Shown: positions 32,601 through 35,600 of the stretch, in pieces
How positions within the stretch are numbered: the stretch's first letter is position 1
Layout: every line of letters starts with the position of its first letter
Origin: a virus
Lineage: Duplodnaviria; Heunggongvirae; Uroviricota; Caudoviricetes
Virus record (IMG/VR): IMGVR_UViG_2684623059_000003
Location: 1 to 41,037 of that record
Reading direction: 5' to 3' (one strand)
DNA length: 41,037 nt
Made by a program: the position numbers

Positions 32601-35600
32601 TGAATGCCAATTTCATCAAGAACCAGCAGATCCACTTCGCACAGTTCCCGCAAAAATTTTTCGCCTGACTGCCCGTCGTCATAGCTGGCGTGCAGGGCAC
32701 TCATAACATCAGCCACAGTAACCACTATCACTGTCTGGCCGTCTTTCAGCAGGCGATTCCCGATAGCCGCCGCCAGATGGTTTTTTCCGGTACCAGGTTT
32801 TCCGCTGAACGCGAAATTTGTACACCCGGTCATCAGTTCATCGGCGATGGATTTTGCCTGGCTTAACGCGTATCGCTGACCGTCGTTCTGCACCTGGTAA
32901 TTCGCAAACGAACATTTGCGGTGCAACGGCTGGATGCCTGAGCGATTCAGAATTTTTTCCACCCGCAACTGACGATTCAGGCGGTTGATCTCCTCGCTAC
33001 GTTTCTGGCCTTCGGCAAGCTGCCACTCGCGCCACTCCGCCACCGTTCTGTATGGAGCGGTTACATGTGGCGGGGTCAGTCTGCGGAGGCGTTCCAGAAC
33101 ACCACCTGTCGCAATATTTTTCACAGTTCGTTACCCCCTGAACCCCGGCGGAATTTCGGTGTCCGGTTCAGAAATGTGATTCACACAACGCTGTACAGGC
33201 GAACGCCCCAGACGGATAACCAGCTCATCCCATTTTTCGCGAAGCTTTGACGGGCTCATGACGTTTTTTACCCAGAATGGATCCCGCTGTACCCGACCAA
33301 ACATTTCGCAAATTTGCCTGTGAGTTCTGCCATCCAGCATCCGCATTGTGCGCACGTCATTGGCCCACACGGTCCAGTTTGGTTCTTTCGGTCGCATGAT
33401 CTCGCCATCATCGCTGGCAGCCTGCTCGTAAAGACTCACGATTCGTCCCCAGATCCACTGCGCACAAGCTAAATCTTCCTGGCTACCCCACTGGCGTTTT
33501 TTCGCACTGAACACAACCGCGTCAGGGTGTCGGGTTAAAAAATCCTGTTCAGCCGTCTGCATGTCCGGTTGCGAAGCTTCCGGACGAGAAGTGTTTTTAT
33601 TCTCTGTAGTAATCTCTGTTGTATTCTCTGTAAGATCATCGGGCCATTTTGACCCGATGACATTGGGTCGTTTTGAACCAATGGAGCGTGTCATTTTGGC
33701 CTCTTCCATCGTGTCATTTTGACCTGATGGAGCGGCGCATTTTGACCTGATGGAATTGCTCACTTTGCCACCATCTAAAAGCTCGCTCTCGTAATTAATC
33801 GTGTAAAAATTAGTCATGTCACGCTTTGATTTGTTGAGCTTTTCGCAACGCAAAAGCCCCAGCATTTTCAGACTTGCAAATGCGCGTTTTAACGTTGACT
33901 CTGACCAGAACGGGAACTGTTCCAGCCATTGTTCTGTTGTGTTATAAATCCAGCGAACCCCGTTACATTCCATGCCGGAATTAGTATCTCTCAACCAGTA
34001 ATGCAGCTGCTGCAGTACAATGGCTTCATTCAGGCCAATTTTCATCGCCAGCTGCGTATTAATAACCAGTGGGCGTTCAGCAAAAAGAAGACTCATAATT
34101 CCATCCGGCTTTTTGTTGATATTGCTGACGATACGCATGCTTGAAAGCAATAGCTTTTTCTATAAGCTCGTCAGTCTCACGCTCCACAACAGCGGGATCT
34201 GCCAAAAGCAGACCGGACTCCACCACATCGCCATATTCTTTGTTTAACCCGGCGATCATGTACGTAATGCTTTTTCCGTCACTAATTTCACGATACAACC
34301 TGAAATCATTAATCCGGATAGCCTCCATAATTGCAGGCACTAGCGCCGTGAACTTTTCACGCTTATCCCTGGTGTCGATAGCCTTCCAGCGTTCGAATAT
34401 CTTCACTCGATTAACGCCAAGCGCTCGCTGATCAACCGCGCCACCTTCATCTGTGACACGCTGAACATCGAGGTTCGGGCGCTCTTTCAGAGCCCAGAAT
34501 GCTTCAGTGATTAATATCGTCGCCTGCTCCTGTGTCATTCCTGGTCGACATATCCAGGCATCCAGAGCCTCACGAGCCTGTTCAGGAGTGATTTTCATTG
34601 TTCAACCGCCCCGCCCGCTTCGTCTTACGATATTCGTCATAAACCTTGGGATCATACAGAAGCTCGCCGCCAGATGCCTCCTGTAGACGCATCGCGCGAC
34701 CTTCAGGAACCAGCTCTTGCCATTGAGAAACAGCAGATGGGTCAACGCCAGCAGCTTTCGCTACTTTGGCTTTCGTACCGTAAAAATTAATTACGTCTGA
34801 TTTAAACATCGCACCTCCAATATTGAGTTTTCTCAATGCTAATCACTCAAGGAATCTCAAGTCAAGGGTTATTAAGATATCTAAATATGAACGAGAAAAC
34901 TTTAGGTCAACGTATTAGAGAAAGACGTAAGCAGGTAGGCTTAAGTCAAAACGGTTTAAGCAAAGCTGCTGGCGTATCTGGCTCATCAATTTCATTATGG
35001 GAAAGTGACCATACAGCACCGCGCGGGCAAAATTTGCATCGCCTCGCCGAGGTATTGCAATGTTCACCAACCTGGATACTGTTTGGCGACGAGGACAAAA
35101 CACCAGCTCCCCCTGTTTCACTCGATAGTGCCTTAGACTTATCGGAAGATGAGTTAGAGATGCTGCGTTTGTATCGCGCACTTCCTAAATCAGAGCAACA
35201 AGCACAACTCAGCGAACTCCGCGCCCGCGTTGAGAATTTTAATCGCCTGTTCACCGAGCTATTAGAGGCTCGCAAACGCAACAAGCATCAATAATCATCC
35301 CTTCACAAAATTTTAAAGCCTTACATTTCAATGTATTGGCTTTATCCTGCGCCAATACTTGAGTTTTCTCATCAAAAAACCTTGACGAAAAACAATGAGA
35401 AAACTAAATTACCTCCATCAACACACCGCACGGTGTTCTCAGCAAACAGTTCCGCTACCCCGGCGTTAAGGGGAAATGAGGTCAGCATGGATACTATCGA
35501 TCTTGGCAACAGCGAATCTCTGGTATGTGGCGTGTTCCCCAACCAGGACGGTACGTTCACCGCGATGACATATACCAAAAGCAAAACGTTTAAAACCGAA

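Follow-up and report, generated by a model that had tools for sequence, protein, structure and literature searches.

A probable ori-lambda-like replication origin inside the initiator gene of a lambdoid prophage contains a 12-bp repeat module found in phages of many phyla

We analysed a 41,037-bp stretch of viral DNA (Caudoviricetes; hereafter, the window) and found a segment, 33560-33775, that is very probably, by analogy with ori-lambda, the cis-acting theta origin of a lambdoid prophage, located inside the gene of its own initiator. The iteron origin itself is a further case of a known arrangement, the origin inside the initiator gene. A previous sequence-only reading of the same DNA had proposed an iteron-type origin within an initiator gene with a DnaC-like partner, and all of the comparative evidence agrees with this proposal, namely the match to an O-like PHROG, a C-terminal domain resembling that of lambda O, the position of the repeats, and constraint at the level of DNA.

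Results

The initiator gene (33131-34096, minus strand) encodes an O-like protein of 321 amino acids (MSLLFAERP...). Its start was taken as the ATG at 34096, where annotated relatives begin (MSLLFAERP); the mechanical ORF reaches a TTG at 34150. The product matched phrog_391, 'replication initiation O-like', in a PHROG profile search (E = 2.7e-95) and no Pfam family at E ≤ 0.01. Directly downstream is a gene for a DnaC-like helicase loader (32378-33124, minus strand), which scored 504 bits against NCBIfam PRK12377, matched the DnaC equivalog at E = 1.2e-91, and was also assigned to Pfam IstB_IS21/Bac_DnaA and to phrog_50. The upstream immunity and early region (34077-35294) contains cI-, cro- and cII-like genes in lambda order, each identified with Pfam and PHROG: a cII-like gene (34077-34598, minus strand), a P22-Cro-like gene (34582-34836, minus strand) and a gene for a cI-like HTH repressor (34836-35294, plus strand). 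A promoter scan returned a pR-like match at 34865-34836 on the minus strand (a consensus match only), and transcription from this predicted promoter would cross the origin. Other open reading frames over the repeats, on the plus strand (33561-33722) and in an alternative minus-strand frame (33535-33681), were by-products of the repeats without support. Of 5426 complete E. coli genomes, approximately 35% (1881-1975) carried the replicon, O55:H7 and STEC strains among them, and the E. coli copies of the initiator gene are annotated 'hypothetical protein'.

The iteron array consisted of six units (33637-33775) in a 23-bp register, with 24 bp between the last two, and had the consensus CATCrGGTCAAAATGaCcCGATG in the sense of O, in which two arms converge on an A4 tract. 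In the direction of the gene, all on the minus strand, these were iteron 1 (33753-33775; GATGGTGGCAAAGTGAGCAATTC), which is weak and in the 23-bp register, and whose counterpart in mEp460_4F5-type relatives fits the consensus better (GGTCAAAGTGA); iteron 2 (33730-33752; CATCAGGTCAAAATGCGCCGCTC), with a good left half; iteron 3 (33707-33729; CATCAGGTCAAAATGACACGATG), a clear dyad with the lowest diversity of the array; iteron 4 (33684-33706; GAAGAGGCCAAAATGACACGCTC), with weak arms and a retained core; iteron 5 (33661-33683; CATTGGTTCAAAACGACCCAATG), also a clear dyad; and iteron 6 (33637-33659; CATCGGGTCAAAATGGCCCGATG), the best dyad, catalogued as inverted repeat I11. A GATC at 33634-33637 begins with the last G of iteron 6. 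Thus, the earlier count of four to six repeats was fair, given that units 1 and 4 are weak, but the period is 23 bp rather than about 22 bp. Likewise, the internal dyad that had been ascribed to each repeat was clear in iterons 3, 5 and 6, where 16-18 of 23 positions were self-complementary, but weaker in units 1 and 4 and good only for the left half in unit 2; the example that had been given, tcatcggg...cccgatga, is indeed unit 6 plus its flanks (33636-33660).

Self-identity within the 140-bp block was 0.57 at a lag of 23 bp, 0.55 at 46 bp and 0.49 at 69 bp, cf. a mean of 0.254 and a maximum of 0.376 at lag 23 in 2000 shuffles. Allowing 3 mismatches at most, the 23-mer consensus matched three times in the window, all in the array (0.00 expected), while the core GKYCAAAAYG occurred five times within 33645-33747 vs 1.24 times expected in the entire window. 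The iterons take the semi-palindromic form CATCGGGTC-AAAA-TGACCCGATG and lie mid-gene, making up codons 107-154 of 321. AT-rich DNA was found on both sides of the array (GC 0.35-0.40 at 33760-33839 and 0.325 at 33600-33639). There was no DnaA box (TTATNCACA, ≤ 1 mismatch) inside the origin (33560-33775), the nearest, each with one mismatch, being at 33117 and 33177, and DnaA-box matches across the window did not exceed a chance-level count. Inspection by eye revealed no IHF-like or oriC 13-mer-like sites.

Adjoining the array after iteron 6 is a module of three copies of ACAGAGAWTACW (33596-33631, minus strand) that encodes TENTTEITTENK and reads, from 33631 to 33596 in the sense of the gene, ACAGAGAATACA, ACAGAGATTACT and ACAGAGAATAAA. 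TRF reported it as a 12-bp period with 2.7 copies at 33601-33632. In each unit, one strand contains TTA and CTA, and its complement contains CTG; these three are known as the initiation trinucleotides of bacterial DnaG primases. Of all 40-bp windows in the gene, the one that begins at 33594 was the least stable (ΔG of -45.6 vs a mean of -56.6, SD 3.3), and this side of the array lies at the 98.9th percentile for 40-bp instability. The module was also the most conserved part of the gene, with a synonymous diversity of 0.003, and low synonymous diversity extended to approximately 33557. Its position matches that of the lambda AT-rich tract (cf. PMC3349717), and by this analogy the module (33596-33631) is likely the DNA-unwinding and helicase-entry element. 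Just past the module is an inverted repeat, CGTCCGG-N11-CCGGACA (33562-33586, minus strand), with a single-stranded DNA fold of -8.1 kcal/mol (z = -2.1), for which the stem is short and the support modest. Inverted repeats with ≥ 8 matched pairs occurred ≤ 55 nt past the module at 29% of 144 unique loci vs 1% of controls, and we propose that the repeat at 33562-33586 corresponds to the palindrome that lambda has on the right of its AT-rich tract.

Elsewhere, the module (ACAGAGAWTACW)n is kept at the nucleotide level beside family-specific iteron arrays with 22-23-bp spacing. Module-bearing initiator genes were found in phages and prophages of many phyla with a host GC content of 22-65%, including phages of Staphylococcus, Bacillus, Burkholderia and Pseudomonas, and an exact 23-mer of the module occurred in > 120 species-representative genomes vs ~0.1 expected (by our own arithmetic for 596 Gb). 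Matches of this 23-mer in Nostocales (L224) and in a DPANN archaeon (L243) fell in unrelated low-complexity proteins (DYNRDY/YGDYY) and were discarded. Pfam searches with nine distant module-bearing initiators identified Phg_2220_C in one, DnaA_N in one, and otherwise weak HTH matches. Literature searches with peptide and DNA strings (TENTTEITTE, TENTTE, TTEITTE, ACAGAGAATACAAC, ACAGAGATTACT, TCTCTGTAGTA and others) returned noise only, and a word search on phage origins located within initiator genes returned nothing on the module.

We tentatively suggest that the 12-13-bp repeat (A)CAGAGAWTAC(W) could be a cis element, hitherto undescribed, that is near-universal in the theta origins of phages and prophages, acting as a sequence-specific unwinding or loading site that is read by a factor common to many phyla, a reading that we regard as plausible but short of probable. 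The module would then be flanked on one side by a swappable specificity cassette, consisting of a winged-helix domain and its own 22-23-bp iterons, and on the other by a swappable host-coupling cassette (lambda-O-like, Phg_2220_C, DnaA_N and other C-domains). That DnaG primase reads the module is speculation; other candidates are the replicative helicase or its loader, or RNA polymerase/an R-loop, the last because the module transcript is ~70% purine.

It is unlikely, albeit a reading to be reckoned with, that the module is instead kept for a reason other than duplex opening, either as a functional peptide (TENTTEITTE) or as a linker that promotes homologous module exchange. The first version would account for the T-E-N/I-T reading frame of 116 of the 122 genomic occurrences, but the codon choice of the module was fixed against host usage: codons remained constant in hosts of 35% to 65% GC, with GAG where GAA is preferred and with ACA in Burkholderia DC1 despite a local ACA usage of 0.01. 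Even in module units outside the searched 23-mer, GAG accounted for 86% (vs 37% elsewhere in the same ORFs) and ACC+ACG for 6% (vs 45%). A peptide would also not explain locus L333, where a 13-bp distance between units gives the one DNA repeat three readings (QRLL, TETT and YRDY), nor loci L238 and L244, in which the module is non-coding. The exchange linker fits the location of the module exactly at the junction at which N- and C-terminal domains reassort (≥ 3 N clusters with ≥ 7 C clusters), and 23-36 bp of identity is about the length that recombinases need. However, for such a linker there would be no need of conservation from one phylum's phages to another's, and recombination and unwinding roles are not mutually exclusive.

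The N-terminal domain of the initiator (33776-34096, minus strand; amino acids 1-107) is putatively origin-binding and was predicted to be a winged helix of the RepA_N/DnaD-NTD type. The AlphaFold2 model, for which the alignment comprised the matches from one protein search, had a pLDDT of 86.6 and a pTM of 0.79. Its best PDB folds in Foldseek were 4pql, 4ro3, 5kbj and 4pt7 (TM 0.46-0.53), with a probability of 0.93-1.00 and modest E values (4e-3 to 7e-2). 4PT7 and 5kbj are N-terminal domains of staphylococcal plasmid RepA (PMC7145576). The depositors' titles were 'N-Terminal domain of DNA binding protein' (4pql), 'Structure of Rep-DNA complex' (5kbj) and 'Structure of initiator' (4pt7). We take 4pql to belong to the same set of RepA N-domains as 4PT7 and 5kbj, and 4ro3 is presumably the PLE RepA-NTD described in PMC7145576. 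On the strength of the model, the N-domain is confidently assigned as a winged helix with plasmid RepA N-domains, one of them with iteron DNA, as its best structural matches. Profile comparison with the N-domain of lambda O (hhalign) detected no relation (probability 0.1), and a PDB sequence search with the whole protein and the N-domain profile matched only the 21-amino-acid DnaT tail.

This tail is formed by the last 21 residues of the initiator (33134-33196), which are nearly identical to the residues that end E. coli DnaT. The C-terminal domain (33134-33500, minus strand) is homologous to that of lambda O, with 35% identity over 148 amino acids to residues 135-270 of O (BLASTP, E = 3e-27). 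Residues ~135-175 of lambda O align with the iterons and AT-rich tract, directly before the homologous C-domain.

Across relatives, iteron sequence followed the N-domain and not the C-domain. Klebsiella phages that share the N-domain but have another C-domain retained GGTCAAAATGAC iterons, Pantoea AH07, in which the N-domain has diverged, had GAGGGCAAATTGCCCTCATC iterons, and Stx1/2 phages with an unrelated N-domain had TTCCCGAAATGGGGAAA-type repeats, while all three arrays were then followed by the same 12-mer module. From the predicted fold together with this co-variation, we infer that the N-domain binds the 23-bp repeats.

Diversity was assessed among 46 unique relatives that were 90-99% identical. 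A search for related loci with an N-domain alignment yielded relatives of 95-99% identity only, which served the diversity analysis but are unfit as an unbiased sample of codon usage. Synonymous diversity per codon fell from 0.117 (N-domain) and 0.156 (C-domain) to 0.014 (iterons) and 0.003 (module). Nonsynonymous diversity was 0.059 (iterons) and 0.035 (module) vs 0.008 (N-domain) and 0.033 (C-domain). A scan of the gene in these relatives identified no non-overlapping 61-codon block below 0.062. The combination of low synonymous and raised amino acid diversity in the iterons and AT-rich tract indicates that it is the DNA that is selected and not the peptide. Uneven diversity can also be produced by the recombination history of a mosaic phage gene, although such a history would not invert the synonymous/nonsynonymous ratio.

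In another reading, the iterons are initiator-binding sites that serve mainly for control (autoregulation, titration/handcuffing or keeping out related phages), or a defective prophage has left them as a relic origin, with replication starting elsewhere. Cloned lambda iterons alone inhibit rep-lambda phages (PMC3349717), and many database copies of the initiator gene are frameshift-truncated inside the repeat region; the prophage may be defective. Nevertheless, we consider this reading improbable, as the iterons, AT-rich module, inverted repeat, and intact initiator and loader are all present and conserved, and the same arrangement is found in the sequenced phages mEp460, PhiR42_1 and HannyBb. 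Control and origin roles are, moreover, not mutually exclusive.

For the same origin, the polarity proposed from the sequence was the reverse of ours, with the array followed by an AT-rich stretch and a tctctgt triplet as an additional upstream element. The triplet is real, as TRF confirmed, but since the gene runs from right to left, it functionally follows the iterons (33596-33631). As for the AT-rich stretch, AT-rich DNA is present on both sides, but 33776-33830 is ordinary coding sequence with a synonymous diversity of 0.118 vs 0.108 gene-wide. Unwinding at 33776-33830, with the triplet as an accessory, is therefore very improbable. This segment has a GC content of 0.35-0.40 and ranks at the 95th percentile of the window for 40-bp stability, but it codes for the conserved final part of the folded N-domain (KSKRDMTNFYTINYESELL; modelled strand E96-100), and its normal synonymous and low nonsynonymous diversity (0.019) indicates constraint at the protein level only. 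In lambda, the AT-rich tract lies on the other flank of the iterons, and the triplet side here has both the lower stability (98.9th percentile) and by far the stronger conservation.

The repeats had also been described as translated into a repetitive linker. Units 1-6 are read as GKVS, IRSKCA, SGQNDTM, AKMTR, IGSKRPN and IGSKWPD, with successive units in different frames because 23 is not a multiple of 3. Owing to this period, the linker is only weakly repetitive, with similar peptides from units 2, 5 and 6 and different ones from the others. That the repeats are a protein-level feature only, i.e., a low-complexity or repetitive linker with no cis role, is scarcely credible. In its favour are the translation of the region and the I(R/G)SK peptides of units 2, 5 and 6, but the 23-bp period shifts the frame from unit to unit, synonymous diversity is 8-40 times below that of the flanks with amino acid diversity higher, and each unit is a DNA dyad. 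Moreover, of 93 unrelated loci, 90% had an equivalent array with 22-23-bp spacing ahead of the module, vs 14% of control segments.

Discussion

The closest comparison for the origin proposed here is ori-lambda, in which four 18-bp iterons and a 38-bp AT-rich tract lie within O (PMC3349717) and O bound to the iterons opens the adjacent 40-bp A+T-rich region in a reaction that needs supercoiling (PMC5043065). The lambda iterons are annotated at 39034-39118 within O and are spaced 20, 24 and 23 bp apart. In both systems, the origin is inside the initiator ORF, between a DNA-binding N-domain and a C-domain; the iterons are dyads, spaced at 20-24 bp, whose G/C-rich arms flank a TCAAAA(C/T)G centre; an AT-rich tract that is A-rich on the coding strand follows the iterons and is itself followed by an inverted repeat; the C-domains are homologous (35% identity); and the gene order is cI-cro-cII-O-loader. 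Unlike lambda, however, there are six iterons rather than four and their arm sequence is different, the N-domain is unrelated in sequence and has no match to PF04492 (Phage_rep_O), the loader is a DnaC-like AAA+ protein instead of lambda P, and the DnaT-like C-terminal tail is absent from lambda O. Lambda also lacks three clean 12-mers and has degenerate traces only (GATTATT..CAGAGAAT, by eye); local alignment of its AT-rich tract with the module was weak and paired positions other than these traces. With its DnaC-like partner, the replicon falls among the lambdoid replication modules of the 'initiator plus DnaC-type loader' variety.

Stx phages 933W and P27 have six iterons in O, four of which are bound efficiently in vitro while all are needed for replication (PMC7466680). 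The number of iterons within O is thus the same, and the weak distal iterons of those phages parallel the weak iterons 1 and 4 here, but 933W and P27 have a lambda-type O and iterons, whereas this replicon has another N-domain and iteron specificity. Other Stx1/Stx2 phages (e.g., LC567819) have a third N-domain type and a 12-mer module that is 97.5% identical to this one.

The N-domain has its best structural matches among RepA_N initiators (pSK41, pTZ2162) and V. cholerae PLE RepA. Iterons of the RepA_N group are semi-palindromes that converge on a poly-A tract (PMC7145576), and in pSK41 the origin sits in the middle of rep, the peptide that it encodes serves as a linker that can be dispensed with, and the C-domain is host-specific (PMC5703833). 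The iterons described here are likewise semi-palindromic, converge on a poly-A tract and lie mid-gene. In contrast to that group, the initiator has no match to Pfam RepA_N (PF06970), belongs to a phage and not to a plasmid, and has a lambda-O-like C-domain and a DnaC-like loader instead of a DnaG-binding domain; pSK41 was absent from the module matches in PLSDB.

oriC and iteron plasmids such as RK2 carry three to five direct repeats of 12-13 bp in an AT-rich tract that adjoins the initiator-binding array. The module has the same geometry (cf. PMC5043065 on origin opening) but is unrelated in sequence to GATCTnTTnTTTT, is mostly translated, and is kept across phyla rather than being replicon-specific. 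Rep_3-type origins (F, R6K, pPS10, RK2) differ in that they are intergenic and have DnaA boxes and non-palindromic direct iterons that bind initiator monomers, as opposed to the in-gene dyad iterons found here, and the initiator had no Rep_3 match in Pfam.

A literature search found no paper on this replicon type. What we describe here is anatomy alone, and the following mechanism is drawn by analogy. Dimers of the initiator N-domain would bind the six semi-palindromic 23-bp iterons, the arms of which meet at a bendable A4 tract, and the array would wrap into an O-some-like complex. On supercoiled DNA, and with transcription passing through from the pR-like promoter, the resulting stress would open the 36-bp module (33596-33631). 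The lambda-O-like C-domain, with its DnaT-like tail, would then recruit host DnaB to the opened strands via the phage DnaC-like loader, while the origin-encoded peptide would be mainly a tolerant linker that joins the two domains.

Together, these results define the putative cis origin and the initiator of a replicon that is present in approximately 35% of complete E. coli genomes. Gene dosage of Stx phages is driven by prophage replication (PMC7466680), and replicon types therefore matter for annotation, for prophage incompatibility or exclusion, and for phage-derived vectors. If the module is conserved across phyla beside unrelated iterons, it would provide a simple, searchable signature that predicts phage origins, and, if this is true, the module would offer a way into the question of how the opening of origins connects with the entry of helicase or primase in bacteria generally.

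The repeats and the gene that carries them

The repeats lie in a minus-strand ORF (33131-34150) encoding an initiator that was matched along its entire length by phrog_391 ('replication initiation O-like', E 2.7e-95) and by no Pfam family. Its start is most likely ATG 34096 (MSLLFAERP...), as annotated phage relatives begin there and GGATGGA lies just 5'. The minus-strand order of a P22-Cro-like gene (34582-34836), a cII-like/YdaT gene (34077-34598), the initiator, a DnaC-like AAA+ loader (32378-33124; NCBIfam PRK12377, 504 bits, E 5e-152; DnaC equivalog, E 1.2e-91) and a DUF1627 gene matches a lambdoid early-right operon; on the plus strand lies a cI-like HTH repressor (34836-35294), and there is a pR-like promoter match (consensus match only) at 34865-34836. 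Elsewhere the window has the look of a lambdoid prophage, including large late genes and two tRNAs; tRNA-Gly(UCC) and tRNA-Thr(UGU) are adjacent on the minus strand (26503-26656).

Six iteron units were found on a 23-bp register (33775-33637), the last two 24 bp apart, with the gene-sense consensus CATCrGGTCAAAATGaCcCGATG, in which arms CATCGGGTCA and TGACCCGATG converge on an A4 tract. Self-identity of the block was 0.57, 0.55 and 0.49 at lags 23, 46 and 69 (shuffles: mean 0.25, maximum 0.38), the consensus was matched three times, all in the array (0.00 expected), and a 10-bp core had five copies within 100 bp vs 1.24 expected per 41 kb. The repeats noticed in the sequence-only reading are thus real, their period being 23 bp and not about 22 bp; the internal dyad symmetry described there is good in units 3, 5 and 6, half-good in unit 2 and weak in units 1 and 4. 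Its triplet of tctctgt repeats is also present, as three 12-mers, ACAGAGAATACA, ACAGAGATTACT and ACAGAGAATAAA (33631-33596, minus strand; the module), followed just 3' by a short inverted repeat, CGTCCGG-N11-CCGGACA (33562-33586, minus strand). Of 144 unique related loci, 29% had an inverted repeat with 8 or more matched pairs no further than 55 nt 3' of the module, vs 1% of control segments. The lowest-stability 40-bp window of the gene begins at 33594, at the module (dG -45.6; mean -56.6, sd 3.3), and no DnaA-box match was found inside the origin (33560-33775). A GATC (Dam/SeqA site; 33634-33637) sits exactly where iteron 6 meets the module; most enterobacterial relatives keep it, as GATCTT or GATCCT, and non-enterobacterial versions lack it.

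Selection on DNA and peptide

From IMG/VR and phage records we took 46 unique relatives of equal length, 90-99% identical, and computed their synonymous and nonsynonymous codon differences pair by pair. Synonymous and nonsynonymous diversity were 0.117 and 0.008 in the N-domain and 0.156 and 0.033 in the C-domain, the initiator domains flanking the repeats; they were 0.014 and 0.059 in the iterons and 0.003 and 0.035 in the module, and all non-overlapping 61-codon blocks of the gene had synonymous values of at least 0.062. Such an inverted ratio is what overlapping DNA-level constraint upon a tolerant linker predicts. The AT-rich stretch that the sequence-only reading placed after the repeats (33776-33830) behaves as ordinary coding sequence (0.118 synonymous, 0.019 nonsynonymous) and codes for conserved KSKRDMTNFYTINYESELL. 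Since this stretch is ordinary and the module is least stable, we correct the polarity of that reading to the gene sense: iterons, module, inverted repeat.

Comparison with lambda O and plasmid RepA

At the lambda origin, four iterons of 18 bp adjoin an AT-rich sequence of 38 bp (PMC3349717); the iterons are annotated at 39034-39118 within O, with the AT-rich tract next. BLASTP aligned window ORF residues 165-312 with lambda O 135-270 (35% identity, E 3e-27), which gives the last iteron, module and following linker the lambda position, immediately ahead of the C-terminal domain that the two proteins share by homology. The iteron centre TCAAAAyG between G/C-rich arms resembles lambda's TCCCTCAAAACGAGGGA, and the inverted repeat stands where lambda has a palindrome; the N-domain is not lambda-like in sequence. 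Its AlphaFold2 model is a confident winged helix (pLDDT 86.6), and the PDB entries that match it best, 4pql, 4pt7, 5kbj (Rep-iteron DNA complex) and 4ro3 (V. cholerae), are N-terminal domains of plasmid RepA. We take 4pql to belong to the same staphylococcal RepA set as 4pt7 and 5kbj, and 4ro3 is presumably PLE RepA. 4PT7 and 5kbj are staphylococcal RepA structures (PMC7145576), and the pSK41 origin, central in rep, codes for a linker that the protein can do without (PMC5703833). Overall, the O-like protein, the DNA-level constraint and the lambda-like layout support the earlier proposal of an iteron origin within the initiator gene, of the lambda-type in-gene kind, whose specificity domain is RepA_N-like and whose loader is of DnaC type.

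Iterons tracked the N-domain rather than the C-domain among the relatives compared, as they should if it is the N-domain that reads them. Klebsiella phages differ from the window in their C-terminal domain but share its N-domain, iterons and module; in Pantoea phage AH07 and other diverged members of this N-domain family the arms are altered (GAGGGCAAATTGCCCTCATC; GGTCAATATGACC...) and the 23-bp register is kept; and those Stx1/Stx2-converting phages whose N-domain is unrelated have TTCCCGAAATGGGGAAA-type repeats. This co-variation fits the O/ori specificity classically seen in lambdoid hybrids.

Prevalence and C-terminal variation

The iteron origin is of a known type, common and unannotated: of 5426 complete E. 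coli genomes, 1881 carry its 226 bp at a coverage of at least 80%, in a gene labelled 'hypothetical protein', and full-length relatives include phages mEp460, PhiR42_1 and HannyBb (~91% identity). A 5-kb comparison with complete E. coli genomes returned no identical copy (best 95.3%). Many database copies are truncated initiators, out of frame across iterons and module (…GQNGLMILQRIQQRLLQRIKTLFVRK…; including proteins P0006, P0007, P0014, P0015, P0029 and P0031), reflecting either frequent frameshift mutations or A-tract sequencing errors, or prophage-copy decay.

The initiator's last 21 residues (33134-33196), VQRCVNHISEPDTEIPPGFRG, are nearly the same as those that end E. coli DnaT (PDB 2ru8, 6aep, 9zbt), and initiators with unrelated C-domains likewise finish in (I/V)P(P/A/H/D)GFR(G/S), which suggests a portable tail that may dock on a host replication-restart or loading partner. 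A preprimosome paper gives this tail no role (PMC13377028). Phage mEp460_ev081 (3559-4966), whose initiator and origin are 91% identical to the window's, has a LygF-like gene 3' of the initiator and lacks the DnaC-like gene. Apparently, this initiator and origin can function whether or not the phage supplies a loader of its own, which fits recruitment of host DnaB-DnaC by the DnaT-like tail. A module-bearing initiator from a Nitrospinota MAG (L255) carries a DnaA N-terminal domain as its C-terminal part (aa 332-392; PF11638, E 3.4e-12), consistent with C-terminal cassettes being helicase-recruitment modules.

The conserved 12-mer module

A 40-nt stretch (33598-33637) is 97.5% identical to O genes of Stx phages with unrelated N- and C-domains. 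The exact 23-mer ACAGAGAATACAACAGAGATTAC occurs at no fewer than 120 IMG/VR loci and, among the matches listed, is always mid-ORF, in at least three N-domain and at least seven C-domain clusters. A 47-mer blastn search of INPHARED returned 100 records (Acinetobacter 21, Staphylococcus 16, Bacillus 14, Klebsiella 12; also Erwinia, Pseudomonas, Burkholderia, Vibrio and Geobacillus), with a replication-initiator CDS under the match in nearly all annotated rows among those listed. The degenerate 23-mer ACAGAGAWTACWACAGAGAWTAC, for which our arithmetic gives about 0.1 chance matches in the species-representative genomes, was matched in at least 120 of them, among which are Gamma- and Alphaproteobacteria, Arcobacter, Bacillota, Cyanobacteria, Chloroflexota, Fibrobacteres, Nitrospinota, Brocadiaceae and Ca. 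Gracilibacteria; a T-E-N/I-T frame was used at 116 of the 122 sites listed (median ORF 326 aa). Matches in Nostocales (L224) and a Ca. Iainarchaeum MAG (L243) were rejected as false positives, being in RDY frame in long DYNRDY/YGDYY low-complexity proteins that have no relation to replication initiators. Across the conservation set (window 33596-33631; loci L004, L006, L127-L132, L213-L332), the module (ACAGAGAWTACW)n keeps its nucleotide sequence in phage/prophage initiator genes from many bacterial phyla (host GC 22-65%), with codon choice fixed against host usage, and always lies directly 3' of family-specific iteron arrays: within 160 nt 5' of it, 90% of 93 testable loci had at least three copies of one 9-mer (controls 14%), spaced overwhelmingly at 22-23 bp.

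Module codons were the same in six phages of host GC 35-65% (ACA GAG ATT/AAT ACT/ACA), with Glu as GAG even where local usage is ~80% GAA, and Thr as ACA in Burkholderia DC1, where local ACA usage is 0.01. Extra units outside the searched 23-mer had this bias too, relative to the rest of their ORFs: 86% vs 37% for GAG, 75% vs 31% for ACA and 2% vs 31% for ATC. A metagenomic homologue from the protein search (P0068, locus L333) has five CAGAGAYTAC units at 13-bp steps across which the frame drifts, reading QRLL / TETT / YRDY / IQRLLQRI. In Planococcus soli (L238, 1-300) and Bacillus sp. FJAT-29814 (L244, 3800-4100) the units are non-coding, with stops in every frame, and no neighbouring initiator gene was identified; the former has GTCAC/GTAAC-type repeats 5' and an RBS and phage-like gene 3', and the latter, amid metabolic genes, is possibly a relic. 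The fixed codons, frame drift, non-coding copies and upstream iterons show that a DNA repeat and not a peptide is conserved. The prophage tRNA-Thr(UGU) decodes ACA, the codon to which Thr is held in the module, probably by coincidence.

Proposed mechanism

Initiator dimers would bind the array via their winged helices, bending the phased A-tracts, and an O-some-like complex would open the adjoining module on supercoiled and transcribed DNA; in lambda, O binding opens an adjacent 40-bp A+T-rich region (PMC5043065). The C-terminal domain would then bring DnaB via the phage DnaC-like loader. The place and geometry of the module (3-5 repeats of 12-13 bp beside an initiator array) are those of an unwinding element; that primase reads it, through trinucleotides in the units, is speculation. 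No description of the module was found in the literature searched, older subscription literature lying outside that search, and it is this conserved 12-mer module that is worth following up.
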